Shown: positions 6,348 to 60,108, counted from the stretch's first letter. The stretch: DNA of 64,000 nt from Escherichia coli (GCF_044647545.1 NZ_CP172818.1); one strand, 5' to 3'. The notes: generated by a model from the letters alone, not told the origin. Program-made: numbers and translations.

Positions 6348-6492
6348 CTGGTTCGTCCGTGAAAATAAGAGTCACAGATTCGACCTTCCGGGCTAACGAT
6401 TGTTCTGTAGAGAAAATGTCCAGAAGCGGATAAAAAATTCCTGAACAACGTGGGAGTTTCAGACATAACTATAAAAATCTCAACACCCCTTT

Positions 6493-6585
6493 GGGAGAGA
6501 GTCAGGGTGAGGAGGAACAGGCCAGCTCCGGGGCGAATAATCACCCTCACCCCGACCCTCTCCCTGAAAGGGCGAGGGGGAAAAA
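6493..6585. repeat. Intergenic palindromic repeat unit (long imperfect inverted repeat)
   Basis: gggagagagtcagggtgagg ... cctcaccccgaccctctccc forms a ~20-bp-arm inverted repeat; resembles a recurring enterobacterial intergenic palindrome family. Confidence 0.5.
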
Positions 6586-6657
6586 CATGCCCGCAGTGAC
6601 GAGTGAGCCACTTTGCCTGATCTCAAACTCCCGGACAAGCCGGGAGTTTGGAGTAGG

Positions 6658-7761
6658 TTATTCCCATTCTTGCAGGAAACGCTGGCCATACTGGTCGGCT
6701 ACCAGCAGTGCGGCGTAAACCTGATCTGGCGTTGCACCGCCTGGCATGTTGTGAATGGTTTCACCTTCTGCACATGCCGCTTCTGCCACAATTCGCATTT
6801 TCGCCGGGACATCTTCTTTAATATCCAGTTGAGCGAGCGTTATTGGCAAACCTACCGCATGGCTAAGCGCAGCTACGGTTTCGATTTCCTCCACCGGCGC
6901 GTTTTCCAGAACCAGCTGCGTCAGCGTACCGAATGCCACTTTTTCACCATGATAATAGTGATGCGCGTCCGGGATAGCGGTCAGGCCGTTATGTACCGCG
7001 TGTGCCGCCGCCAGCCCGCCGCTTTCAAAACCAACACCGCTCAAATAGGTGTTCGCTTCAATCACGCGTTCCAGCGCCGGAGTCACTACATGCTGTTCGG
7101 CGGCAAGCATCGCTTTTTCGCCTTCTTCCAGCAGAGTGTTGTAGCACAGTTCTGCCAGTGCCAGCGCCGCCTGGGTGCACTTGCCGCCCGCCATGGTGGT
7201 CGCGCCGCTACGAGAGCAAGCACGCGCTTCAAACCAGGTTGCCAGCGCATCGCCGATACCCGCCGCTAACAGACGTGCAGGTGCGCCAGCGACGATTTTG
7301 GTGTCGACAATGACCATATTCGGGTTATTTGGCAACAGCAGATAGCGGTCAAACTCACCCTCATCGGTGTAGATAACAGACAATGCGCTGCATGGTGCAT
7401 CGGTAGAGGCGATAGTCGGTGCGATCGCTACCGGAACACCCATGAAATGTGCCAGTGCTTTGGCAGTATCGAGGGTTTTTCCGCCACCGATACCGAGAAT
7501 TGCGCCACACTGCGCAGTCTCCGCGATGCCACGCAGACGGTCGATCTCATTTTGCGAACATTCACCGCCAAACGGCGCAATTTCTACTACCAGTCCAGCA
7601 TCTTTAAAACTTTTCTCGACAGTGGATTGAGCAAAACCTAAAACAAATTTGTCACCCACCACTAACCAGCGTTCTGCCAGCGGCTTCAGGTATTCGCCCA
7701 GACGATTAATCACATCAGCGCCCTGGATGTATTTACCCGGTGATTGAATAATGCGGTCCAT
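6658..7761 (-). CDS. gldA: Glycerol dehydrogenase
   Basis: 367 aa from internal Met ([17 protein letters not shown]...); iron-containing alcohol dehydrogenase family. Confidence 0.95.
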
Positions 7762-7771
7762 AATTGCTCCT

Positions 7772-8434
7772 TTAGAGATGAGTAGTGCCAAATGCGGCAT
7801 TCCAGTCGTTTTCGAACTTCTCTATAGCTGACTCTACCGCAGGGGTGTTGAGCATTTGTTGCGCTACATCTAAGGGCAGGGTGATGGATTCACATCCTGC
7901 CAGTAAACAGTCCAGCGCCTGACGCGGCGTTTTAAAGCTGGCTGCCAGCACCATGCTTTCTGGCGCGTGCATTTCCAACAGCGCTTGCAGCTCCTGAACC
8001 GTACGAATGCCGTCCCCGCCCTGGGCGTCGACGCGGTTAACATACGGAGCAACATATTTTGCCCCTGCCAGCGCGGCTAATAACCCTTGTGCGGCGCTAT
8101 ATACAGCGGTGCCAAGTGTAGTAATACCCTCTTTTTTCAGCATTTTAATGGCGGCAAGACCTTCGGAAGTTACCGGGATTTTCACCACAATGCCCGGAAT
8201 GGCGTCGCGCAGGCGCTTCGCTTCTTCCACCATACCCTGCGCGTCACGACTCATGGTCTGAGCAAACAAAATACCCTCATCACCAATCGCTTTTTGCAAA
8301 CGCGGCAGCACTTCCCAGATGGACTCCTTGCTGGCCGCGATAATGCTCGGGTTAGTTGTCACCCCGGCAATCGGGAATATGCGTGCCAGACGTTCGACTT
8401 CTGCGACGTTAGCGGTGTCCAGATACAGTTCCAT
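7772..8434 (-). CDS. fsaB: Fructose-6-phosphate aldolase 2
   Basis: 220-aa [33 protein letters not shown]..., transaldolase-like fold. Confidence 0.9.
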
Positions 8435-8445
8435 GATGTTTCCTT

Positions 8446-10947
8446 TTACAGTTCCAGTTCATGTTGCAGCAGGCTGGCGATAGCGTCGGCAGAGGCGGCG
8501 TTAACCAGCGCGTTACGGAATTCTTCGTGCATGATGCGACGAGCGAGGCGCGAGAAAATGCGCATGTGCTGATCGCCCGCAGCGTGTTTGTTCAGGGTTA
8601 ACATAATGATGAATTGCGCTTCATCATCGCCCCAGCGCACCGGCGCTGCCAGACGCGCCACGCTGATGGTGGATTGCTCAATGTGTTCTGATTTGCTGTG
8701 GGGAATGGCAAAACTAAAGCCCAGACCGGTAGAGAAAACGGCCTCGCGCGCCCACAAGTCGGCTTCCAGTTTACGCGGATAGCGACAGCGGCCCGCCAGC
8801 AGCAGGTTATCGGTCATGCCTTTGAGCACTTCTTCTTTGCTGCGCCAGTCGCTTTCCAGTGTGATGCACTCGGCGGTGACCAGCGGGGCGTCCTGTTGGG
8901 TCATGCGGAATTGCGCCAGCAGGTGTTCCACTTCTAGCGAAGTACGGCAGGCCATTGCCTGGTTGAGCAACTGGCGGCACTCACGGCTATCAAGTTGCGC
9001 CATTCGCGCTTTCGCCGCCGGAATTGACGGTGCGCTCATGCTCAGCTCATCCAGCCCTAAACCGACCAGCAATGGCAGCACGGAACCTTTCGCTCCCAGT
9101 TCACCGCACAGACCAATCCATTTGCCCTGGCGATGCACCGCCTGCACGGCGTAATCGAGCGCCCGCAAGAATGCTGGATTCAGGCTGTTATAGTGACGAG
9201 TAACCTTAGCGTTATCGCGATCCACTGCTAGCAGATATTGCGTCAGGTCATTACTACCGATACTAAAGAAATCAATCTCTTCGCAGCATTGATCGATGAT
9301 GAACATCACCGACGGCACTTCCAGCATGATGCCGAGCTGGATCTTCTCATCAAACGGAATGTGTTCGTTACGCAGTTGCTGTTTGGCTTCCGCCAGTTTT
9401 TCTTTTACCCATAAGATCTCTTCCATTGAAGAGATCATCGGGATCATAATTTTCAGGCTGCCGTGAGCGGAGGCACGGAGAATCGACCGTAGTTGTGTGG
9501 TAAATAACGACGCGTACTCTTCATAAATACGCACGGCGCGATAACCGAGGAACGGGTTTGCCTCTGCGGGAATGTTCAGATAATCAACGGGTTTGTCACC
9601 GCCAATATCCATAGTGCGCACAATAATGCTGCGTCCGTTGGCGGACTCCAGCGCCTGACAAAAAATGTTGTACAGCTCGCTTTCGCCCGGTGCACTGGTG
9701 CGATCCATATAGAGCATTTCAGTGCGGAATAAACCAACGCCTTCCGCACCATTGCCGAATGCGGCCTGCGCTTCCACGGAGTGAGCGATGTTAGCAGCAA
9801 TTTCAATGCGGATACCGTCAGCAGTACGGGCTTGTTGGGTCAGCCAGACACGCTGTTGCTCACGCAGAGCGTCCTGTACGCGGGCTTCTTGCTGATAATA
9901 ACGGGCCACGGATTCCCCTGGCTCAACCACAATCGCCCCTGCGTTGCCGTCGATATAAATCGTTTGATGCTGCCACGGAGTGAGGGCATCAATATCCACA
10001 CCAACCAGCGTCGGAATGTTGAACGAACGGGCAAGGATCACCGTATGTGAGGTGGTGCCGCCGCTTTTGAGCAACAATCCTTTGAGGTGATTTTTATCCA
10101 GTTCGAGGAACTGGCTGGGGGTCAGTTCATCAGCCATACAAATGGCGGGCTGCGTCAGTTTGCCCGGTGCCGGGAAGCGTTGCTCACCGTAGATTTGCTG
10201 GAGTAACTGGAAGCAGACGTCGCGTACGTCCAGGGCACGTTCTTGCAGGTAGCTGCTGCTGGAACGGGCGAACTCTTCGCAGAAGTGGTGTGCACTGGCA
10301 ACAATCGCTTCGGCACAGCTTAATCCGGCGCTGACACCTGCCAGTAAATGTTCGCGCAGGGAAGTATCGCCAGCCAGGGATCGGTGCGCTTCCAGAATCG
10401 CGCTGGTAGCACCGTCGCTATCCAGCAGACGAAACTCTATGTTTTTCAGTACCAGCGTCAGACCGTTTTCCAGTGCGGATTGTTCGGCGTCAACGCCTTT
10501 GGCTGCGGGAAGATTACCCAGCGCATTGAGATCTAAAGAAGAGATCGGCGTCAGAATGCCGCCTGCGCTACCGCTGCACACGGTGCGGGCACGGATAATT
10601 TGCGGATTCAGATTGGTCAGTGAAACCGGCAGTGGTTCCAGTTCGTCAGATTTTACTTCCGCCAGCGGTGCGTCGCAGTGGGGGAATTCATCGCGCAGCC
10701 ATTGGCTTAAACGCTGGTGCGCTTCCTGTTCGTCGGCCCCGGAAATCAGTAACTGGCAGTTATCGCCCACCAGCGTATCGGTGCCAATCAGCGCAAGGGC
10801 GCTTTTGGCGTTGCCCTTGCGGTCAGTGCGCAGGTTATGCCACTCAATTTGTGATGAAAAAGTATTACACAGCGTTTCAACGTGGCTTGCCGGACGCGCA
10901 TGGACGCCGTTAGGTAGCTCACAAATAAATTCCACAATCAGGGCCAT
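8446..10947 (-). CDS. ptsA: Multidomain PTS protein of the fructose-like frw system (EI / HPr / EIIA domains)
   Basis: 833-aa ORF; PEP-utilising enzyme signatures; synteny with frwC/frwB. Confidence 0.9.
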
Positions 10948-11255
10948 TGCCTTTCTCCCGGTACGGTTTTCTGTTTACAGGATAAGAGCGCACGGCAACG
11001 GCCTACCATGTGACAAATCTGCCAAAAGCTGGACAAATGTAATGTAACCGTCAATTTGCGACGCGTCTCACAAGACGCCGTTTTGCGGTGTACTTCCGGA
11101 TTATCGCAAGTTATGAGGCGGATCGCATTTTTGTACTGATATTACAAAAGTCCAGTAAATGGCCTTTTTATCCACTGTTTGCTCCGCCTGCGATTGCCTA
11201 TTGTTTCTTCCATCAAAAATATGGACATGGGCTTTCGCAAGCCCGGGAGCAGCTT

Positions 11256-12335
11256 ATGAATGAGTTGGTGCAGATCCTGAAAAATACTCGTCAGCATTTA
11301 ATGACGGGCGTTTCACACATGATTCCCTTCGTGGTATCGGGCGGTATTTTGCTGGCGGTTTCCGTCATGTTGTATGGCAAAGGCGCAGTGCCGGATGCCG
11401 TCGCCGATCCGAATCTGAAAAAACTGTTTGATATCGGCGTTGCAGGTTTGACGCTGATGGTGCCTTTCCTCGCCGCTTACATCGGTTATTCCATTGCAGA
11501 GCGTTCTGCGCTGGCTCCGTGCGCTATCGGTGCCTGGGTTGGTAACAGCTTTGGTGCGGGCTTCTTTGGTGCACTGATCGCCGGGATTATCGGCGGCATC
11601 GTGGTGCATTACCTGAAGAAAATTCCGGTGCATAAAGTTCTGCGCTCGGTGATGCCCATCTTCATCATTCCGATCGTCGGCACACTGATTACCGCAGGCA
11701 TCATGATGTGGGGTCTGGGCGAGCCTGTAGGGGCGTTGACCAACAGCCTGACTCAGTGGCTTCAGGGGATGCAGCAGGGCAGCATTGTTATGCTGGCGGT
11801 GATCATGGGTCTGATGCTGGCGTTCGATATGGGTGGTCCGGTTAACAAAGTGGCCTATGCCTTCATGCTGATTTGCGTTGCTCAGGGTGTATATACCGTG
11901 GTGGCCATTGCTGCCGTGGGTATTTGTATCCCGCCGCTGGGGATGGGGTTGGCGACGCTGATTGGTCGTAAAAATTTCTCCGCAGAAGAGCGCGAAACCG
12001 GCAAAGCGGCGCTGGTGATGGGGTGCGTTGGGGTTACTGAAGGGGCGATTCCTTTCGCCGCTGCCGATCCGTTACGTGTCATTCCTTCCATCATGGTCGG
12101 TTCTGTTTGTGGTGCGGTAACTGCGGCACTGGTCGGTGCACAGTGCTATGCAGGCTGGGGTGGTCTGATTGTGCTGCCGGTGGTTGAAGGCAAGCTGGGT
12201 TATATCGCAGCAGTGGCTGTCGGAGCAGTGGTGACGGCTGTTTGTGTGAACGTGCTGAAAAGTCTGGCGCGTAAAAATGGGTCTTCGACTGATGAAAAAG
12301 AAGACGACCTGGATTTGGATTTTGAAATTAATTAA
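11256..12335 (+). CDS. frwC: Fructose-like PTS permease EIIC component
   Basis: 359 aa from internal Met (MNELVQILKNTRQHL...); polytopic membrane protein. ORF-track start 11088 rejected. Confidence 0.9.
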   Translation: MNELVQILKNTRQHLMTGVSHMIPFVVSGGILLAVSVMLYGKGAVPDAVADPNLKKLFDIGVAGLTLMVPFLAAYIGYSIAERSALAPCAIGAWVGNSFGAGFFGALIAGIIGGIVVHYLKKIPVHKVLRSVMPIFIIPIVGTLITAGIMMWGLGEPVGALTNSLTQWLQGMQQGSIVMLAVIMGLMLAFDMGGPVNKVAYAFMLICVAQGVYTVVAIAAVGICIPPLGMGLATLIGRKNFSAEERETGKAALVMGCVGVTEGAIPFAAADPLRVIPSIMVGSVCGAVTAALVGAQCYAGWGGLIVLPVVEGKLGYIAAVAVGAVVTAVCVNVLKSLARKNGSSTDEKEDDLDLDFEIN

Positions 12336-12349
12336 TTGAGGAACGAGCC

Positions 12350-12670
12350 ATGACGAAAATTATTGCAGTAACCGCGTGTCCATCTGGTGTTGCCCATACC
12401 TATATGGCGGCAGAGGCGCTGGAAAGTGCCGCGAAAGCGAAAGGCTGGGAAGTGAAAGTAGAAACCCAGGGCTCGATTGGTCTGGAAAATGAACTGACTG
12501 CGGAAGACGTGGCGAGCGCCGATATGGTGATTCTGACCAAAGATATCGGCATCAAGTTTGAAGAGCGTTTTGCTGGCAAGACCATCGTGCGCGTCAACAT
12601 CAGCGACGCGGTAAAACGCGCTGATGCCATTATGAGCAAAATTGAAGCTCACCTGGCACAAACCGCTTAA
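12350..12670 (+). CDS. frwB: Fructose-like PTS EIIB component
   Basis: 106 aa, MTKIIAVTACPSGVAHTYMAAEALE..., conserved Cys in the CPSGVAHT motif. Confidence 0.9.
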   Translation: MTKIIAVTACPSGVAHTYMAAEALESAAKAKGWEVKVETQGSIGLENELTAEDVASADMVILTKDIGIKFEERFAGKTIVRVNISDAVKRADAIMSKIEAHLAQTA

Positions 12671-12720
12671 GTTCTTATCCCGCCCGTAAGGGCGGGTTCG
12701 CTTTCCCACAGGAGTTCCTC

Positions 12721-15018
12721 ATGACGAATCGTATCTCTCGCCTCAAAACTGCACTGTTTGCCAATACCCGTGAAATCTCGCTGGAGCGGGCGCTGCTTTA
12801 TACCGCCAGCCATCGGCAAACCGAAGGCGAACCGGTGATATTGCGCCGGGCGAAAGCAACAGCGTATATCCTTGAACATGTTGAAATTTCGATTCGTGAT
12901 GAAGAACTGATTGCCGGTAACCGCACCGTAAAACCACGCGCCGGGATTATGTCGCCGGAAATGGACCCTTACTGGCTGCTGAAAGAGCTGGATCAATTCC
13001 CGACGCGTCCGCAGGACCGCTTTGCTATCAGCGAAGAAGATAAACGTATCTACCGCGAAGAGTTGTTCCCGTACTGGGAAAAACGTTCGATGAAAGATTT
13101 CATTAACGGGCAGATGACGGATGAAGTAAAAGCCGCGACCAGCACGCAGATTTTCAGCATCAACCAGACGGATAAAGGCCAGGGGCACATTATTATTGAT
13201 TACCCGCGCCTGCTGAATCACGGGCTGGGTGAGCTGGTAGCGCAAATGCAGCAACATTGTCAGCAACAGCCGGAGAATCACTTTTATCAGGCCGCGTTGT
13301 TACTGCTGGAAGCCTCGCAGAAACACATTTTGCGTTACGCCGAACTGGCGGAAACGATGGCGGCAAACTGCACAGATGCCCAGCGTCGCGAAGAGCTGCT
13401 GACTATTGCGGAGATCTCCCGCCATAACGCGCAACATAAGCCGCAGACGTTCTGGCAGGCGTGCCAGTTATTCTGGTACATGAACATCATTCTGCAATAC
13501 GAATCCAACGCCAGTTCGCTGTCTTTAGGGCGCTTCGACCAGTATATGTTGCCGTTCTATCAGGCATCTTTAACCCTGGGCGAAGATCCGGCGTTCCTGA
13601 AAGAACTGCTCGAATCTTTATGGGTGAAATGCAACGACATCGTGCTGTTGCGCTCCACCAGCAGCGCGCGTTATTTCGCCGGTTTCCCGACCGGCTATAC
13701 CGCACTGCTCGGCGGTTTAACCGAGAATGGACGTAGCGCGGTGAACGTGCTTTCGTTCCTCTGCCTCGATGCTTATCAAAGCGTGCAATTACCGCAACCG
13801 AACCTCGGCGTGCGCACTAACGCCTTGATCGACACGCCGTTCCTGATGAAAACCGCAGAAACCATTCGCCTCGGCACCGGTATTCCGCAAATCTTTAACG
13901 ATGAAGTGGTAGTGCCAGCGTTCCTCAACCGTGGCGTTTCGCTGGAAGATGCGCGCGACTATTCCGTAGTGGGCTGTGTGGAATTATCTATTCCCGGCAG
14001 AACCTACGGTCTGCATGACATTGCGATGTTTAACTTGCTGAAAGTGATGGAAATCTGCCTGCATGAAAATGAAGGCAATGCTGCGCTGACTTATGAAGGT
14101 TTACTGGAGCAGATCCGCGCCAAGATCAGCCACTACATCACCCTGATGGTTGAGGGCAGCAATATTTGTGATATCGGCCATCGCGACTGGGCACCTGTAC
14201 CGCTACTCTCGTCTTTTATCAGCGATTGTCTGGAAAAAGGCCGCGATATTACCGATGGCGGTGCGCGTTATAACTTCTCCGGCGTACAGGGGATCGGTAT
14301 CGCCAACCTGAGCGATTCTCTCCATGCGTTGAAAGGTATGGTTTTTGAGCAACAGCGTTTAAGTTTTGACGAATTGCTGTCGGTATTAAAAGCCAACTTC
14401 GCAACGCCAGAAGGCGAAAAAGTCCGTGCTCGCTTAATTAACCGCTTCGAGAAATACGGTAACGATATCGACGAGGTGGATAACATCAGCGCCGAACTGT
14501 TGCGCCACTACTGCAAAGAAGTGGAAAAATACCAGAACCCGCGCGGCGGTTACTTCACGCCGGGATCGTATACCGTTTCTGCTCACGTCCCGTTGGGATC
14601 GGTGGTTGGCGCGACGCCAGACGGTCGTTTTGCCGGAGAACAGCTGGCAGACGGCGGCTTGTCACCCATGCTGGGCCAGGACGCACAAGGGCCAACGGCG
14701 GTACTGAAGTCAGTCAGTAAGCTCGATAATACGCTGCTGTCTAACGGTACGTTGCTGAACGTGAAATTCACTCCGGCGACCCTGGAAGGTGAAGCGGGAT
14801 TACGCAAACTGGCCGACTTCTTACGGGCGTTTACCCAGCTTAAGTTGCAGCATATTCAGTTTAACGTGGTGAACGCCGACACGTTGCGGGAAGCGCAACA
14901 GCGCCCACAAGATTATGCCGGGCTGGTGGTGCGCGTTGCCGGATACAGCGCCTTCTTTGTCGAATTGTCGAAGGAGATCCAGGATGACATCATCCGCCGG
15001 ACAGCGCATCAGCTGTAA
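12721..15018 (+). CDS. pflD: Pyruvate formate-lyase-like glycyl radical enzyme
   Basis: 765-aa ORF; C-terminal glycyl radical motif (RVAGYSAFF). Confidence 0.9.
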   Translation: MTNRISRLKTALFANTREISLERALLYTASHRQTEGEPVILRRAKATAYILEHVEISIRDEELIAGNRTVKPRAGIMSPEMDPYWLLKELDQFPTRPQDRFAISEEDKRIYREELFPYWEKRSMKDFINGQMTDEVKAATSTQIFSINQTDKGQGHIIIDYPRLLNHGLGELVAQMQQHCQQQPENHFYQAALLLLEASQKHILRYAELAETMAANCTDAQRREELLTIAEISRHNAQHKPQTFWQACQLFWYMNIILQYESNASSLSLGRFDQYMLPFYQASLTLGEDPAFLKELLESLWVKCNDIVLLRSTSSARYFAGFPTGYTALLGGLTENGRSAVNVLSFLCLDAYQSVQLPQPNLGVRTNALIDTPFLMKTAETIRLGTGIPQIFNDEVVVPAFLNRGVSLEDARDYSVVGCVELSIPGRTYGLHDIAMFNLLKVMEICLHENEGNAALTYEGLLEQIRAKISHYITLMVEGSNICDIGHRDWAPVPLLSSFISDCLEKGRDITDGGARYNFSGVQGIGIANLSDSLHALKGMVFEQQRLSFDELLSVLKANFATPEGEKVRARLINRFEKYGNDIDEVDNISAELLRHYCKEVEKYQNPRGGYFTPGSYTVSAHVPLGSVVGATPDGRFAGEQLADGGLSPMLGQDAQGPTAVLKSVSKLDNTLLSNGTLLNVKFTPATLEGEAGLRKLADFLRAFTQLKLQHIQFNVVNADTLREAQQRPQDYAGLVVRVAGYSAFFVELSKEIQDDIIRRTAHQL

Positions 15019-15862
15019 CGTTGTGGAAACGCGCCGCGATGATGTGGCGCGCATTTTCAACATTCAGCGTTATTCACTGAATGACGGCGAGGGCATTCGT
15101 ACGGTGGTCTTTTTTAAAGGCTGTCCGCATCTTTGCCCGTGGTGTGCTAATCCGGAGTCGATCTCCGGCAAAATCCAGACTGTACGCAGAGAGGCGAAAT
15201 GTCTGCACTGTGCGAAATGTTTGCGTGATGCGGATGAATGCCCCTCCGGTGCGTTTGAACGGATTGGTCGCGATATCAGCCTTGACGCTCTGGAACGGGA
15301 AGTGATGAAAGATGACATTTTCTTTCGCACGTCCGGCGGCGGCGTCACGCTTTCTGGCGGCGAAGTGTTAATGCAGGCGGAGTTTGCTACCCGTTTTTTA
15401 CAGCGGCTGCGGTTGTGGGGCGTGTCATGCGCCATTGAAACCGCCGGAGACGCGCCAGCCAGCAAGCTGTTACCGCTGGCGAAATTGTGCGATGAAGTGT
15501 TGTTCGATTTAAAAATTATGGACGCGACTCAGGCGCGGGATGTGGTGAAGATGAACCTGCCACGCGTGCTGGAGAATCTGCGTTTGCTGGTGAGTGAGGG
15601 CGTCAACGTGATCCCGCGTTTACCGCTGATCCCTGGTTTCACGCTCAGCCGGGAGAATATGCAGCAGGCGCTGGACGTGCTGATCCCGCTGAATATCAGG
15701 CAGATCCATCTGTTACCGTTTCATCAGTACGGCGAACCGAAATACCGCCTGCTGGGGAAAACATGGTCGATGAAAGAGGTGTCTGCGCCGTCGTCAGCCG
15801 ATGTGACAACGATGCGCGAAATGGCAGAACGGGCCGGATTTCAGGTTACCGTGGGAGGTTAA
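14984..15862 (+). CDS. pflC: Glycyl-radical enzyme activating protein (radical SAM)
   Basis: 292 aa from internal Met (MTSSAGQRISCNVVE...); Cys-rich motifs CPHLCPWCANPE and CLHCAKC; overlaps the pflD 3' end. Confidence 0.9.
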   Translation: MTSSAGQRISCNVVETRRDDVARIFNIQRYSLNDGEGIRTVVFFKGCPHLCPWCANPESISGKIQTVRREAKCLHCAKCLRDADECPSGAFERIGRDISLDALEREVMKDDIFFRTSGGGVTLSGGEVLMQAEFATRFLQRLRLWGVSCAIETAGDAPASKLLPLAKLCDEVLFDLKIMDATQARDVVKMNLPRVLENLRLLVSEGVNVIPRLPLIPGFTLSRENMQQALDVLIPLNIRQIHLLPFHQYGEPKYRLLGKTWSMKEVSAPSSADVTTMREMAERAGFQVTVGG

Positions 15863-15863
15863 A

Positions 15864-16205
15864 ATGGCATACCTGGTGGCAGTAACCGCCTGCGTAAGCG
15901 GCGTGGCGCATACTTATATGGCGGCGGAACGGCTGGAAAAGTTGTGCCAGTTAGAGAAGTGGGGCGTCAGCATTGAAACTCAGGGCGCGCTGGGAACGGA
16001 GAATCGTTTAGCGGACGAGGATATCCGTCGGGCGGATGTTGCTCTGTTGATTACGGATATCGAGCTTGCCGGTGCCGAGCGATTTGAACATTGCCGCTAC
16101 GTGCAATGCAGCATCTACGCTTTCCTGCGTGAGCCGCAGCGGGTGATGAGCGCGGTACGCAAAGTGCTTTCTGCGCCGCAGCAAATCCATCTTATTCTGG
16201 AGTAG
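15864..16205 (+). CDS. frwD: Fructose-like PTS EIIB component 2
   Basis: 113 aa, paralogous to frwB (VTACVSGVAHTYMAAE). Confidence 0.9.
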   Translation: MAYLVAVTACVSGVAHTYMAAERLEKLCQLEKWGVSIETQGALGTENRLADEDIRRADVALLITDIELAGAERFEHCRYVQCSIYAFLREPQRVMSAVRKVLSAPQQIHLILE

Positions 16206-17043
16206 TCGGTTTTTCTGTCAGTTGGCTGTGGTACTGCCGACGATATTCCGACGGTGAGCGTTCGGTATTTTTACGAAACAGACGGCAGAAGTAGTTGCTG
16301 TCGACAAAGCCGCAGGCGTGCGCCACTTCTTTTACCTTCAGGTCATAGCCTTTCAATAACGTCTTAGCGTGCTCCAGTCGCGTGTGATTCAGGTATTCGT
16401 TAAAACCAATGGCCCCCGTTTTTTGAAACAGGTGCGAGAGGTAATTTGGCGAAATATAGAATGCCTGTGCGACAGATTCGCGGGTAAGCGCGGAGGCATA
16501 GCGTTCGTCGATATAATCGCGAATAGCTTCGAATAGAGCCTGGCTACGTGAGGCGGTCTGGATTTGGCTGCCGAGCAAATCGCGGCAGTGGCTAAGCAGG
16601 CTGGCGACGATAAGCCTTGCCGTTTGCTGCTCCTGCGACTGCATTTGCATTTCATTGAGCGTTTGTAGCAGAAAAGAACCTATGCGTGGGCCGCGTCGGG
16701 CGACGTGTTGCTTCGCCAGATTTTGATATTGTTTGCCATCCCATTGCACGACGCTGAAGCCGAGTTGCTGTTTGCCAAACAGCACGCTAAAGGTCGTGGC
16801 GGGGGCTTGCCATTGTGGAAAATTCCAGCCACCAGCGGGAACGTACAGCACATCGCCGGGAACTAACGTTGCTCCAGCGCCGGTATCAACAAACTCACCT
16901 TCCAGCACAATTTCCAGTCGTGGAAAATCGACCTGATACGCAAGATCGGGCACCGGGCCGTTGCTGCTGGCAAAGTAAATCTGGCGCAGGGACAGCGGGC
17001 CGTTGATCAGGCGGGAGAGCAGATAGCTGACGTCGTGATACAT
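16192..17043 (-). CDS. yijO: AraC/XylS-family transcriptional regulator
   Basis: 283-aa ORF with C-terminal AraC-type HTH region (...YLSHLFQKTGAIGFNEYLNHTRLEHAKTLL...). Confidence 0.85.
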   Translation of the reverse strand: MYHDVSYLLSRLINGPLSLRQIYFASSNGPVPDLAYQVDFPRLEIVLEGEFVDTGAGATLVPGDVLYVPAGGWNFPQWQAPATTFSVLFGKQQLGFSVVQWDGKQYQNLAKQHVARRGPRIGSFLLQTLNEMQMQSQEQQTARLIVASLLSHCRDLLGSQIQTASRSQALFEAIRDYIDERYASALTRESVAQAFYISPNYLSHLFQKTGAIGFNEYLNHTRLEHAKTLLKGYDLKVKEVAHACGFVDSNYFCRLFRKNTERSPSEYRRQYHSQLTEKPTTPE

Positions 17044-26580: not shown

Positions 26581-26589
26581 GAAATTTTC

Positions 26590-28955
26590 ATCTACTAAAT
26601 TTGATCACCAACCAAAAATAGCACTTCCATATTCATTAATACCGTAAAATCAAGACCGACACGTTTACCAACAACACCAGATATTCAAAACATCAAAAAA
26701 AACATGGCAGAAGTAATTGAAAATAACCAAGGACGAAATCTCGGCACATTTAAAATGATTAATGCAATCGGATATGGGAGAATTAACATGCCATATTAAA
26801 TATTCTCGAAAAGTAGTCCGCTGCTTATCTAAAAGATCATTTCTCTTCAGAAGAAATTTTCAGCGATAACAGGAGCATGGAAGAATAATGGCAACTCCTC
26901 TCTTGAATGTAGAAGGGGACAAGACCCGTCAAGAGGTTAGCTATAACAGACAATAATATAATAATGAAAAATATTAAAGCAAAGTTTGATATTGACCAGA
27001 ACAAAATTTCGGTACCTTACAATAAACACCGTAAGCGGATATTGCCAAATCAGAGAGCGCACAATAAATGAACCGAAGAAGACTACGCAAATCATCAGAA
27101 AAATCAATTTAATCCAAAACTAATTCACCGCGATGCACCCCGTATCCAAAACATTTATCAATTCTGAAGAAAGAAGCATACTCGCGACGACCCCCAACCA
27201 AGAGGTCGGGCACGGAAGACCAGGAGAGGCGTCATAAAAGTATAAAGATAAAACACCAAATATACCAGAATATCAACGTATTAAGTGCGCTTCTAACGAA
27301 CATCTGATGCATGATATCCACAACCCCCGGACCCCGATCGAAGAGGCCCGTGAAGAGAAGAGCAAGACGACACATCCTCTTTAAGATGAAACATGCGAAG
27401 CGCGCTGTAACCCAGAAATGAATCAGTTTTGTTCGGCGAAGACTAAAAGACCGATCGGAACCGGAAATCTAAAACCTTACTCGGAATACAAGCAGTTGAT
27501 CGAAGAAAAGTATATCGATTTTATACCGAAGATGATTAAACCGCAGGCAATAATATCGGGATGAAACAAAATCCCGATCATGACACGCATCATCACCTAA
27601 CTCCCACGCACAGCCCTTCAGATATAACCACTGAGGATTATCCCCGTTCTTGAAGGTAGATCTCACGCTTCCAAACATACGGAATGTTATCGGCGGATTC
27701 ACAATATATGAAGTCATCCCGAATACCTGCCGCGCGAGGAAAACATATCACCAAGGCAAGCAATTAAGCGAAGAGCAGCCTATCAACAAAAATCGCACGA
27801 CGAATATCCATATAACCCGGATTACCTCCACGTACACAATCCAATATGGCATATCTTGGAAAGGACATAACAGTTCGCATAATCATTCACTTCAAACGCA
27901 TCTAATCCATTCATTCCCCTAAATATTTAAAAATGGATGCCGAACTTTCAACTACAGGAGCACAAGGAATAGCAACAAAAAAGGCTTGATCCGACACTAA
28001 TACCTGGCGCATCAATGAAGGTGGGAATCATCAATTCCATCGACCGTTCCTCAGTAATCCTTCAATCAAAAAGATCGTCGAAAGATACGAATGACCCCGA
28101 CTGAATTCCCCTCTCACCACTCGGAGATGGCACTTTTCCGTACACGGAATAACAGAACGCCCAACCAGTATCTGGATAGACAGCTTATCCACAAGAATAC
28201 TTAAAGACCCAAAAATAGAATTCGGGGCATTAATCCGTGCAGCAACAAAAAAACTGCAATCGATTAGCCGTATTATTACAATAACTATCGGTTTATTAAT
28301 TATGGAGGCGACAGTTAATTCCCCCGACCGAACCTAACACAGACTGGTAGGCGAAAAGAAAATTGGAGAGGAAGGATTATCGGAGATTTAACTCAGCGAC
28401 TGTTATCTCTGCGGTTATTCTGTCCCCATCGTTTTTAATAACGCATTTCGCTTTTTTCCTACACCCATTTGTCCCACTAATAGTTTTGGGCGGGGGCCTT
28501 TTATTCTCGGCAGCGATGCAGACATGAACAGAAATGATTAATGCTGATCGCCACGCTATTTAGACGCCGACCGGGCGGAGAAGCGGAGAACCGCCATTTA
28601 TTCCGGTGGGAGGAAGACCGAACAACGAACGGTATGGGCAGAAAGAACCCCCCCCACGGCCCAGGGGGTATTTTACACATCAATCGTGATCTGCCGCGCG
28701 CATGCCCCTGCAACACCTGTATTGAGATAGCTGCCGTTGATCTGGCTCGAAATATTGTCACACCTCGATTCCTTCCCCCATTAACTATTTTCACCCGAAA
28801 CTACGACCCGAAACCGTAAAACTATTCTTTAACCATTACACGTCTTCGTCAATCCCCCCCACCCACTTACTTTATCTCAACCTTTCTGCATTTTCCGGAA
28901 ACCAGGGGATTGCAGATTAACAAAATGGCTTCCATCGCCGGGATTCAAAACTTTG
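26590..28955. other. ~2.3-kb ORF-free, A-rich / G-poor block of unknown origin between argH and oxyS
   Basis: No ORF of 60 aa or more with a plausible start/RBS on either strand (only four overlapping 82-97 aa frames); sampled 100 nt at 27001-27100 counts A44 C22 G17 T17; the K-12 argH-oxyS spacer is ~60 bp from memory. Boundaries approximate. Confidence 0.85.
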
Positions 28956-28964
28956 GCAAAAAAA

Positions 28965-29074
28965 AGCGGATCCTGGAGATCCGCAAAAGTTCACGTTGGC
29001 TTTAGTTATTCGAGTTGAGAAACTCTCGAAACGGGCAGTGACTTCAAGGGTTAAAAGAGGTGCCGCTCCGTTTC
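28965..29074 (-). ncRNA. oxyS: OxyS small regulatory RNA (oxidative-stress sRNA)
   Basis: Minus strand reads GAAACGGAGCGGCACCUCUUUUAACCCUUGAAGUCACUGCCCGUUUCGAGAGUUUCUCAACUCGAAUAACUAAAGCCAACGUGAACUUUUGCGGAUCUCCAGGAUCCGCU, ending in the terminator hairpin plus U-run; divergent from oxyR. Confidence 0.9.
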
Positions 29075-33951: not shown

Positions 33952-34069
33952 GATGTATCCTGAAAAATTAAAGTACGCGGCGATTGTAGGGATTGCTCAT
34001 CAGATGTCCAGATCTTGATGAATTCCTATTTGTGAGCTACGTCTGGACAGTAACTTGTTACAACCTGTA

Positions 34070-34300
34070 GCATCCACTTGCCGGTCCTGTGAGTTAATAG
34101 GGAATCCAGTGCGAATCTGGAGCTGACGCGCAGCGGTAAGGAAAGGTGCGATGATTGCGTTATGCGGACACTGCCATCCGGTGGGAAGTCATCATCTCTT
34201 AGTATCTTAGATACCCCTCCAAGCCCGAAGACCTGCCGGCTAACGTCGCATCTGGTTCTCATCATCGCGTAATATTGATGAAACCTGCGGCATCCTTCTT
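34070..34300 (+). promoter_or_regulatory. Cobalamin (adenosylcobalamin) riboswitch in the btuB leader
   Basis: btuB 5' leader with conserved B12-element-like segment (...gcggacactgccatccggtgggaagtcatc...) directly upstream of the btuB start. Confidence 0.8.
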
Positions 34301-37338: not shown

Positions 37339-38880
<1,542 letters not shown>

Positions 38881-38958
38881 CCTTAAAGAAGCGTACTTTG
38901 AAGTGCTCACACAGATTGTCTGATAGAAAGTGAAAAGCAAGGCGTAAGCAGACGATAC

Positions 38959-39034
38959 GTCCCCTTCGTCTAGAGGCCCAGGACACCGCCCTTTCACGGC
39001 GGTAACAGGGGTTCGAATCCCCTAGGGGACGCCA
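38959..39034 (+). tRNA. gltT: tRNA-Glu (anticodon UUC) in the 16S-23S spacer
   Basis: gtccccttcgtctagaggcccaggacaccgccctttcacggcggtaacaggggttcgaatcccctaggggacgcca, 76 nt. Confidence 0.95.
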
Positions 39035-39229
39035 CTTGCTGGTTTGTGAGTGAAAGTCACCTGCCTTAATATCTCAAAACTCATCTTCGGGTGACGTTTG
39101 AGATATTTGCTCTTTAAAAATCTGGATCAAGCTGAAAATTGAAACACTGAATAGTCGAAAGATTATTCGTGAGTCTCTCAAATTTTCGCAACACGATGAT
39201 GAATCGAAAGAAACATCTTCGGGTTGTGA

Positions 39230-42134
<2,905 letters not shown>

Positions 42135-42225
42135 ACAACGCCGAAGATGTTTTGGCGGATGAGAGAAGATTTTCAGCCTGATACAGATTAAATCAGAACG
42201 CAGAAGCGGTCTGATAAACAGAATT

Positions 42226-42345
42226 TGCCTGGCGGCCTTAGCGCGGTGGTCCCACCTGACCCCATGCCGAACTCAGAAGTGAAACGCCGTAGCGCCGATG
42301 GTAGTGTGGGGTCTCCCCATGCGAGAGTAGGGAACTGCCAGGCAT
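42226..42345 (+). rRNA. rrfB: 5S ribosomal RNA
   Basis: tgcctggcggcc...gagagtagggaactgccaggcat, 120 nt. Confidence 0.95.
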
Positions 42346-59896: not shown

Positions 59897-59922
59897 AAAA
59901 ACCCGCTTCGGCGGTTTTTTTA
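59897..59922 (+). terminator. Intrinsic terminator downstream of rpoC
   Basis: aaaaacccgcttcggcggttttttt: short GC stem with ttcg loop and U-run. Confidence 0.75.
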
Positions 59923-60108
59923 AACAAATCCAGACTTTGCTTCACGGGAAATATTAAGAAAGGCAGGGCGAAACGAGGAAGAAGCTTTTCGCCCTGGACA
60001 ACATTCCTGCTGACGGCACTACCATAAAAAAACACAACGCTTTCAACAACCTTGCGTTTTTCATCTTCCGTAGCGGCTCGGAATAAATTTACGTTGTTAC
60101 ATTCTGTT

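Follow-up and report, generated by a model that had tools for sequence, protein, structure and literature searches.

Two glycyl radical enzymes of Escherichia coli, PflD and YbiW, provide the closest described systems for the locus analyzed here. As summarized in a review of 'anhydroglycolysis' (PMC12441222, citing Ma et al., JACS 2024, PMID 39283600), 1,5-anhydromannitol (AM) is phosphorylated by a PTS, after which PflD cleaves 1,5-anhydromannitol-6-phosphate (AM-6-P) to 1-deoxyfructose-6-phosphate in a glycyl-radical, strictly anaerobic reaction, while YbiW performs the equivalent cleavage of 1,5-anhydroglucitol-6-phosphate. PDB crystal structures exist for both PflD (8yjo) and YbiW (8yjn and 8id7). 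The neighboring genes ptsA-fsaB-gldA form a single operon that is induced anaerobically (PMC6643234), and YijO appears among the transcription factors without a known function in PMC9308461.

We analyzed a 64-kb stretch of an E. coli chromosome (GCF_044647545.1, NZ_CP172818.1; hereafter the window) that carries these genes in a compact arrangement (Table 1). Two other stretches of the window, at about 160-927 and 26581-28958, are abnormal and appear corrupted or synthetic. The region from 8000 to 17000 occurs with 100% identity in at least 10 RefSeq E. coli chromosomes and was detected in 5425 of 5426 complete genomes, with at least 80% of it at a single place in 5390. Synteny of PtsA, FrwC, FrwB, PflD, PflC, FrwD and YijO extends beyond Escherichia to Vibrio, Gilliamella and Necropsobacter, with FsaB present in most such loci. 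The first-pass annotation had laid out a fructose-like PTS around a glycyl radical enzyme and its activase, and every gene that it named is intact and where it had been placed. It had rightly called this known gene content, and its deduction that the cluster serves an anaerobic pathway dedicated to a sugar derivative, with FsaB and GldA taking part, was sound. Its statement that the substrate is still undefined, which it would have given up for a published substrate and function, is out of date: the literature check found both (Ma et al., JACS 2024, as summarized in PMC12441222).

The function of ptsA-fsaB-gldA and frwCB-pflDC-frwD is already known, having been published in 2024, and the locus is very probably the AM branch, in E. 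coli, of anhydroglycolysis, the published radical-mediated pathway, organized as two divergent operons and a regulator. This reading is anchored by PflD, which matches 760 of the 765 residues of 8yjo ('Probable dehydratase PflD') over its full length. The five differences (window residue first) are S141N, A283T, L286Q, P290A and L385F, and this near-identity to the crystallized enzyme points to PflD as the published AM-6-P C-O lyase.

Table 1. Genes and predicted regulatory features of the locus, in window coordinates
Feature	Coordinates	Strand	Description
gldA	6658-7761	-	NAD-dependent glycerol / L-1,2-propanediol dehydrogenase; NF047954, 752.6 bits (cutoff 700)
fsaB	7772-8434	-	Fructose-6-phosphate aldolase 2; TIGR00875, 349.8 bits (cutoff 246)
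ptsA (frwA)	8446-10947	-	833 aa; fused HPr-EI-EIIA (Fru-type) multiphosphoryl transfer protein
Candidate ptsA -10, TATCCT	10979-10984	-	Conserved ACAGGATAA block in intergenic alignment
Left operator (ptsA side)	11003-11046	+	Predicted YijO site; matrix score 57.2
CRP-like site, TGCGA-N6-TCACA	11057-11072		Centre ~92.5 bp upstream of inferred ptsA start
Second CRP/FNR-family-like site, TATGA-N6-TCGCA	11112-11127		Centre ~91.5 bp upstream of inferred frwC start
Right operator (frwC side)	11138-11181	-	Predicted YijO site, inverted copy of left operator; matrix score 58.3
Candidate frwC -10, TATTGT	11199-11204	+	Conserved CTATTGT block; T252, A253 and T257 invariant in intergenic alignment
frwC	11256-12335	+	359 aa; Fru-family PTS EIIC permease, presumed AM transporter
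frwB	12350-12670	+	Fru-type PTS EIIB, Cys10; NF007783, 210 bits (cutoff 135); PF02302
pflD	12721-15018	+	765 aa; PFL-like and Gly_radical domains; PFL2/glycerol-dehydratase subfamily glycyl radical enzyme
pflC	14984-15862	+	292 aa; radical-SAM activase of PflD; 35-bp overlap with pflD
frwD	15864-16205	+	Second EIIB paralogue, Cys10; NF007747, 224 bits
yijO	16192-17043	-	AraC/XylS-family regulator; 14-bp overlap with frwD, convergent to it

The frw genes encode a complete Fru-family PTS, with EI, HPr, EIIA, EIIB and EIIC modules all present and the HPr and EIIA histidines and EIIB cysteines found. In PtsA, the Pfam domains follow the order HPr (residues 7-84), EI (123-653) and EIIA_2 (690-829), with phosphorylatable His16 within GVHARPA of HPr and His750 within FAIPHS of EIIA_2. 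A simple pattern gave no match to the active-site histidine of EI, yet the protein reaches 481 bits with the EI model TIGR01417 (cutoff 342). FrwC matches NF007787 ('PTS fructose transporter subunit EIIC'; 720.4 bits, cutoff 426) and TIGR01427 (300 bits, above cutoff), with no Pfam match at 1e-3. Both EIIB proteins are PTS_IIB members that share 44% identity and keep the N-terminal Cys10 in VTAC; FrwD diverges faster than FrwB, and its gene adjoins yijO even in most rearranged loci. On the other strand, fsaB and gldA lie directly downstream of ptsA with gaps of 11 and 10 bp, gldA being the last gene of the operon. Linkage of fsaB to pflD recurs in most of 80 related loci, and the NCBIfam name of GldA is 'bifunctional L-1,2-propanediol dehydrogenase/glycerol dehydrogenase'. 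Because of the shared operon and shared operators, we infer that AM is carried specifically by the frw PTS. The part of PMC12441222 that covers AM phosphorylation speaks merely of 'a PTS', without naming frw, so a different PTS could phosphorylate AM.

We further investigated how the two operons might be controlled. Between ptsA and frwC lie two operators in mirror image, made of TGGAY-type half-sites 20 bp apart, the left one comprising the direct half-sites TGTGACAAA and CTGGACAAA. Spacing to the candidate -10 elements is mirrored as well (18 bp on the ptsA side, 17 bp on the frwC side). Among 69 orthologous intergenic regions, the left CTGGA-N5-GTA core is found in 68 and the right core in 67, with a constant spacing of about 127 bp between the two, and 66 regions have one core on each strand. 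A position weight matrix built from the operators was scanned over the window and about 3.34 million positions of related loci. It recovered only the two operators in the window, where the next best match scores -15, and scored above zero at 156 of the 3.34 million positions. All loci with other than two matches were checked, and every extra or single match lies upstream of a pflD-linked gene. Outside the matrix-building set, Kluyvera and Edwardsiella piscicida, which retain only pflD-pflC-yijO, have matches upstream of pflD. Between the operators, the CRP-like site is marked by conserved alignment columns (T110, G111, G113, T121, C122, A123, C124, A125), and its Gilliamella counterpart is a perfect TGTGA-N6-TCACA. 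The second site reads TTTGA-N6-TCGCA in most genera, with invariant columns G168, G174, T176, C177, C179, A180 and T182-184, and its assignment to CRP or FNR is ambiguous. A consensus sigma-70 scan of 10800-11400 found no promoter, which fits activator dependence.

The candidate activator is YijO. The earlier description of the cluster ended at 16205 and so omitted yijO, though the gene appears to be part of the system: it accompanies pflD-pflC in 75 of the 80 related loci, including six whose surroundings yielded no frw PTS gene, and the operators co-occur with it across genera. YijO carries HTH_18 (PF12833) and HTH_AraC (PF00165) matches at residues 192-270. Its AlphaFold2 model (pLDDT 86) has two domains, including a beta-rich N-terminal domain (22-115), and its full-length Foldseek matches include CsvR, Rns and ToxT (E 7e-9 to 1e-6). 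On this comparative evidence we take the operators to be predicted YijO sites, and YijO probably controls the locus as a predicted activator dedicated to the two divergent operons, a role that is new here. Co-occurrence would also be compatible with another factor acting at these sites. YijO would occupy both 44-bp operators, which would span about -30 to -73 relative to each of the divergent promoters, and the CRP/FNR-type sites would lie near -92. A fuller model is tentative, and we hold it with slightly less than even confidence: YijO would be an AraC-type activator that responds to AM(-6-P) and governs a compact regulon, acting through the two operators and the CRP/FNR-type sites; FrwD may link the activity of YijO to transport flux; and a PhyH-type dioxygenase would have been recruited to the regulon in Klebsiella, Kluyvera, Yersinia and Vibrio, where it could offer another, oxygen-dependent way of using the same anhydro-sugar.

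Other readings of the locus start from its annotated names. RefSeq and NCBIfam call PflD 'formate C-acetyltransferase', and its PFL-like fold (PF02901, 703 bits; PF01228, 108 bits) would suit a spare pyruvate (or 2-ketoacid) formate-lyase, with the frw PTS merely feeding ordinary fermentation. The earlier label 'pyruvate-formate-lyase-like' stands for the fold but fails for the active site, whose residues are of the dehydratase/eliminase type. The PflD sequence contains no Cys-Cys dipeptide, the dyad of pyruvate formate-lyase; its lone Cys419 lies, with Glu421, in a GCVE motif common to glycerol and diol dehydratases, which aligns with the GCVE of 1r8w and 5i2a, and the RVAGY motif around Gly741 likewise aligns with B12-independent dehydratases. 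Against the true-PFL model TIGR01255, PflD reaches 119 bits (cutoff 994) through its C-terminal part only, with no full-length match, whereas the PFL2/glycerol-dehydratase subfamily model TIGR01774 gives 1348.6 bits (cutoff 678). Structure matches agree, with E = 1e-194 for glycerol dehydratase and a weak E = 3.5e-33 for PflB, and the PDB depositors named the protein a dehydratase. With a different substrate given in the review's account as well, the formate-lyase reading of PflD is effectively refuted already, and we give it next to no probability.

That every PTS part belongs to the Fru family would instead suit anaerobic uptake of fructose or a fructose-like ketose, in which FsaB converts fructose-6-phosphate to dihydroxyacetone and glyceraldehyde-3-phosphate, GldA reduces dihydroxyacetone to glycerol, and the PflD substrate is unrelated. 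PtsA has indeed been cited as part of a putative PTS for anaerobic fructose catabolism, and FsaB and GldA are able to act on dihydroxyacetone (PMC6643234). However, this leaves unexplained why pflD-pflC sits inside the PTS operon, under operators shared with ptsA-fsaB-gldA, and why pflD-pflC-yijO persists without the PTS in Kluyvera. The PflD substrate given in the review's account is, moreover, a PTS-type 6-phosphate, and its product an FSA substrate, making the fructose pathway very unlikely. A closer variant takes a related anhydro- or deoxy-sugar, such as one derived from 1,5-anhydrofructose or another C2 epimer or analogue, as the true physiological substrate, with AM-6-P only the best in-vitro surrogate so far. 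AM is termed a 'non-physiological polyol' for humans (PMC12441222), and Vibrio operons contain an additional RmlD/epimerase-type NAD(P) reductase gene. The PhyH-type Fe(II)/2-oxoglutarate dioxygenase gene that is added under the same operator in several genera hints at a broader substrate network. Weighing against a different sugar, the product of the AM pathway matches FsaB and GldA exactly, and the primary work reportedly includes substrate-containing crystal structures and growth data. We therefore regard it as unlikely that another sugar is the true substrate, and retain AM.

If the locus is the AM branch, PEP would phosphorylate the EI domain of PtsA, and the phosphoryl group would pass through its HPr and EIIA domains to Cys10 of FrwB and/or FrwD, so that AM imported via FrwC would be released as AM-6-P. 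PflC, identified by NF007483 (629 bits) and TIGR02494 (261 bits, cutoff 174) and carrying CX3CX2C at residues 47-54 and one extra four-cysteine motif (C73, C76, C79, C86), would generate the radical at Gly741 of PflD. A thiyl radical at Cys419 would then abstract the C2 hydrogen and, with Glu421 acting as the base, the C1-O5 bond of the ring would be eliminated, opening the ring to give 1-deoxyfructose-6-phosphate. FsaB would split this product into glyceraldehyde-3-phosphate, which enters glycolysis, and hydroxyacetone, which GldA would reduce to 1,2-propanediol, using up the NADH made downstream. These roles of FsaB and GldA are proposed in part on what the abstract of the primary work is said to report.

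Altogether, the locus would represent an oxygen-sensitive fermentation route for 1,5-anhydro-sugars in E. coli and many gut Enterobacterales. Its published discovery fills two old gaps: what PflD/PflC and the frw PTS do, and which physiological task FsaB and GldA serve. The product names 'formate C-acetyltransferase' and 'fructose transporter' in RefSeq and NCBIfam mislead and could now be revised, and the candidate regulator and operator coordinates supplied here make regulation testable.

Compared with known systems, the locus is the same as ptsA-fsaB-gldA / frwCB-pflDC-frwD of K-12 (b3945-b3953), another E. coli strain, with identical gene order and only strain-level substitutions. At the enzyme level, PflD belongs to the subfamily of the B12-independent glycerol dehydratase of Clostridium butyricum (1r8w; E = 1.4e-194, 651.6 bits) and the related diol dehydratase (5i2a), with conserved Cys-x-Glu and Gly motifs. 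Glycerol dehydratase and PflD both eliminate a C-O bond beside a hydroxyl-bearing carbon, but the leaving group in PflD is the ring ether oxygen of a sugar phosphate, which results in ring opening rather than the loss of water.

The regulatory layout recalls araC-araBAD as an analogue in architecture only: an AraC-family regulator, direct half-sites at about -30 to -73, a CRP-type site near -92 and divergent promoters, binding being predicted here. Unlike araC-araBAD, both the ptsA and frwC promoters have a full operator, in mirror symmetry, and yijO lies outside the divergent units, convergent to frwD. The nearest relative in metabolism is ybiY-ybiW/fsaA, the 1,5-anhydroglucitol-6-phosphate branch. 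Unlike pflD, ybiW has no adjoining dedicated PTS, gldA or AraC-type regulator, and its locus holds no YijO-type operator (best matrix score -22.6). Like the AM locus, it places a glycyl radical enzyme, an activase and an FSA-type aldolase side by side in K-12. FsaA and FsaB share 70% identity and YbiW and PflD 37%; YbiW has GCxE and RVAGY motifs as in PflD, acts on the C2 epimer of its substrate and, in the published account as reviewed, yields the same product, 1-deoxyfructose-6-phosphate.

The locus that joins the frw PTS to pflD and pflC is an already known E. coli system, because its function was published in 2024 (Ma et al., doi 10.1021/jacs.4c07718), and the first-pass annotation, which had called its substrate undefined, is out of date on this point. 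A review (PMC12441222) describes the anaerobic breakdown of 1,5-anhydroglucitol and 1,5-anhydromannitol by gut bacteria, with PTS phosphorylation as the first step for both; E. coli PflD then converts 1,5-anhydromannitol-6-P to 1-deoxyfructose-6-P by glycyl-radical cleavage, and YbiW forms the same product from 1,5-anhydroglucitol-6-P, also by glycyl-radical cleavage. Both enzymes have PDB entries (8yjo, 'Probable dehydratase PflD'; 8yjn and 8id7, 'Probable dehydratase YbiW'), and the PflD of the window is identical to 8yjo at 760 of 765 residues. In the primary 2024 report, FsaA or FsaB reportedly splits 1-deoxyfructose-6-P into glyceraldehyde-3-P and hydroxyacetone, the latter being reduced, it is said, to 1,2-propanediol by GldA. 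The NCBIfam name of GldA ('bifunctional L-1,2-propanediol dehydrogenase/glycerol dehydrogenase') and the anaerobic induction of the ptsA-fsaB-gldA operon (PMC6643234) are consistent with these FsaB and GldA steps.

Describing PflD as pyruvate-formate-lyase-like holds for its fold but not for its active site, which has a single Cys (Cys419, in a G-C-V-E motif with Glu421) and no Cys-Cys dyad; Gly741 lies in an RVAGY motif. GCVE and RVAGY line up in alignments with B12-independent glycerol dehydratase and with diol dehydratase. Against the PFL2/glycerol-dehydratase model PflD reaches 1348 bits, but against the true PFL model, where the cutoff is 994, it reaches 119 bits. Active site and model scores together exclude a spare pyruvate formate-lyase, a reading to which we give almost no credence. 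Prediction of substrate class from active-site residues, suggested in the first-pass annotation, places PflD in the class expected for C-O elimination beside a hydroxyl-bearing carbon. Alternatively, the locus could encode a fructose PTS, with FsaB and GldA acting on fructose-6-P and dihydroxyacetone; this seems very improbable, as it leaves unexplained a radical enzyme that is embedded in the locus and co-regulated with it. A third possibility is that 1,5-anhydromannitol is a mere surrogate substrate. The review terms this sugar non-physiological for humans (PMC12441222), which speaks for such a role, and we consider it unlikely. With 1,5-anhydromannitol-6-P as the substrate, PflD would abstract the C2 hydrogen, upon which the anhydro-hexitol ring would open at C1-O5, a mechanism that the active-site class fits.

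The gene content and layout given in the first-pass annotation are borne out by the ORF listing, annotated genomes and domain scans (see table). At least 10 RefSeq chromosomes match the region 8000-17000 with 100% identity, and of 5426 complete E. coli genomes 5425 contain it. By domain scan, PtsA is a fused HPr-EI-EIIA (Fru type) protein, in that order, FrwC is a Fru-family EIIC, PflD combines PFL-like and Gly_radical domains, and PflC is a radical-SAM activase. FrwB and FrwD are EIIB paralogues that share 44% identity and both keep Cys10. A simple pattern search did not locate the EI active-site His of PtsA, and no Rfam family was found within 6658-17043. PflC adds to its radical-SAM CX3CX2C motif a single four-Cys motif (C73, C76, C79, C86); activases of its clade usually have two auxiliary-cluster motifs.

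Features of the frw-pflD locus, of related loci in other genomes (L numbers, with coordinates in those loci) and of the rest of the window
Feature	Coordinates	Strand	Remarks
gldA	6658-7761	-	downstream of fsaB, 10-bp gap
fsaB	7772-8434	-	directly downstream of ptsA, 11-bp gap
ptsA	8446-10947	-	ORF listing and annotated E. coli genomes
candidate -10 TATCCT	10979-10984	-	17-18 bp outside operator
predicted operator	11003-11046		44-bp element, inverted relative to the 11138-11181 copy
CRP-like site TGCGA-N6-TCACA	11057-11072		between operators; intergenic alignment
CRP/FNR-like site TATGA-N6-TCGCA	11112-11127		between operators; TTTGA in most genera
predicted operator	11138-11181		44-bp element, inverted relative to the 11003-11046 copy
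candidate -10 TATTGT	11199-11204	+	17-18 bp outside operator
frwC	11256-12335	+	ORF listing and annotated E. coli genomes
frwB	12350-12670	+	ORF listing and annotated E. coli genomes
pflD	12721-15018	+	ORF listing and annotated E. coli genomes
pflC	14984-15862	+	ORF listing and annotated E. coli genomes
frwD	15864-16205	+	ORF listing and annotated E. coli genomes
yijO	16192-17043	-	AraC-family; outside the 8446-16205 of the first-pass annotation; 14-bp overlap with frwD (16192-16205)
OxyS	28965-29074	-	RNA family match
btuB cobalamin riboswitch	34065-34254	+	RNA family match
one rRNA operon and five tRNAs	37339-42343	+	RNA family matches
PhyH-family gene	L032 13237-14115	-
PhyH-family gene	L044 ~14516-15382	-
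PhyH-family gene	L078 16271-17026	+
RmlD/epimerase-type reductase gene	L078 13192-14046	+	also L079-L081

A genome scan with PflD gave 80 loci, from Escherichia to Vibrio, Gilliamella and Necropsobacter (74-99% identity), at which gene linkage was assessed by tblastn with the window proteins. Conservation of the core arrangement of PtsA and FrwC-FrwB-PflD-PflC is wide; most loci also have a linked FsaB, whereas linkage of GldA is seen mainly in Enterobacteriaceae. The most faithful partner of pflD-pflC is yijO, which accompanies them in 75 of these 80 loci, rearranged ones included. In Kluyvera it occurs in four of five loci (the fifth does not extend far enough to include its position), and it is found in Edwardsiella piscicida as well; no frw PTS genes were found near pflD-pflC in either. 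Where frwD and yijO both occur, the gap between them is under 300 bp in 61 of 69 loci. The literature searched mentions YijO in two places only: as a transcription factor whose function is unknown and whose N-terminal domain is unusually divergent (PMC9308461), and through frwD-yijO in a list of convergent 'excludon' transcript overlaps (PMC12288877). Its AlphaFold2 model (pLDDT 86) has a beta-rich N-terminal domain and a double helix-turn-helix, with CsvR, Rns and ToxT as full-length structural matches. frwD and yijO converge, and most loci of Escherichia, Citrobacter and Enterobacter keep their overlap (tblastn match overlap 7 bp), so that transcription reading through from the frw operon could dampen the expression of yijO.

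Alignment of the 308-bp ptsA-frwC intergenic region (10948-11255 in the window) across 15 genera revealed four conserved blocks: two predicted operators, each with two direct half-sites TGGAY(A/T)n spaced 20 bp, and two CRP/FNR-like sites read from this alignment and the sequence itself, although strict CRP/FNR patterns matched just 29 and 24 of 66 intergenic regions. A CTGGA-N5-GTA core occurs once per strand, at fixed spacing, in 66 of 69 intergenic regions; in the window the two CTGGA cores are at 11029-11033 and 11151-11155. Given the spacing of the candidate -10 elements, the operator of each promoter would span about -30 to -73 and its CRP/FNR-type site would lie near -92, a predicted mirror-symmetric layout that resembles araBAD. 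The transcription starts are predicted near 10972 (-) and 11211 (+). A sigma-70 consensus scan of 10800-11400 found no promoter, which fits activator dependence rather than promoter absence. A matrix built from the operator sites picked out just the two operators across the 64-kb window, scoring 57 and 58 against -15 for the next best position. At loci outside the set from which the matrix was made, the top match in Kluyvera preceded pflD by about 70 bp (24-27 versus -14); in E. piscicida it was likewise upstream of pflD (36.7), and in Vibrio it fell in the ptsA-frwC intergenic region. Scores above 0 were reached at 156 of 3.34 million positions in 81 loci: 69 loci had two matches, as the pair of ptsA-frwC operators gives, and in the ten loci with one or three, each match inspected was upstream of a pflD-linked gene. 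By standard comparative reasoning, we infer that YijO would bind these predicted operators.

Further genes accompany the locus in other genera. A gene for a PhyH-family (PF05721) Fe(II)/2-oxoglutarate dioxygenase adjoins yijO and is conserved in 14 loci, in Kluyvera, Klebsiella/Raoultella-type genomes, Yersinia, one Enterobacterales MAG and Vibrio. It has its own predicted operator copy in Yersinia (L044, L046) and Vibrio variabilis (L078). In Kluyvera, two small plus-strand ORFs between pflC and yijO belong to no family and were set aside, the real gene there being the PhyH-family ORF on the opposite strand. In Vibrio, an RmlD/NAD-epimerase-type reductase gene lies between pflC and an fsa-like aldolase gene. 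Both types of gene are absent from the E. coli window. Speculatively, the dioxygenase may provide an oxygen-dependent alternative route for the same anhydro-sugar, with mannose or mannose-6-P as its predicted product, and the Vibrio enzyme may supply the pathway by reducing 1,5-anhydrofructose(-6-P).

Elsewhere in the window, differences from the closest RefSeq genome are concentrated in intergenic regions. Against E. coli FDAARGOS_497, small indels and substitutions cluster at 937-1154, 6464-6620, 17148, 22041 and 59912-59939, mostly between annotated genes, genes elsewhere being identical; further differences fall in the rRNA operon (38345-41870). After a coding region ending at ~156, presumably metL, a run of more than 40 A (~181-223) is followed by T-depleted, purine-rich low-complexity sequence up to metF (A 41%, G 29%, C 20%, T 10% over 1-927); this stretch (~160-927) does not align to the closest RefSeq genome, which has a 5'-nucleotidase gene there. 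In the argH-OxyS interval, 26581-28958 (2.4 kb) is a nearly gap-free copy, at ~60-65% identity, of a manD and MFS-transporter island from sister E. coli strains that are otherwise ~99.9% identical. It is A-enriched (GC 34-45%, AT skew up to +0.4) and has no ORF above 97 aa; none of 5426 complete E. coli genomes contains a near match. A diverged orthologue was rejected on equal mismatches across codon positions 1, 2 and 3 (0.39, 0.39, 0.35) and the lack of an ORF, and a diversity-generating retroelement on mismatches at all bases and the 2.4-kb length. Both stretches look corrupted, synthetic or hypermutated rather than products of normal or selection-shaped divergence, and they leave the frw-pflD region unaffected. 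The RNA features are ordinary, as expected for that part of the E. coli chromosome.

Three things were not found in the literature searched and are new here: the predicted YijO regulon with the coordinates of its operators, the linkage of FrwD to YijO, and the accessory gene of PhyH type. E. coli K-12 has ybiY-ybiW, divergent from fsaA, a paralogous set in which YbiW is 37% identical to PflD and FsaA 70% identical to FsaB. The operator matrix found no site around K-12 ybiW-fsaA, where the best score was -22.6, so the predicted operator would be specific to the locus of pflD. A radical enzyme paired with an FSA aldolase is thus a duplicated arrangement. That one product can come from two enzymes is explained by their substrates, those of PflD and YbiW being C2 epimers.
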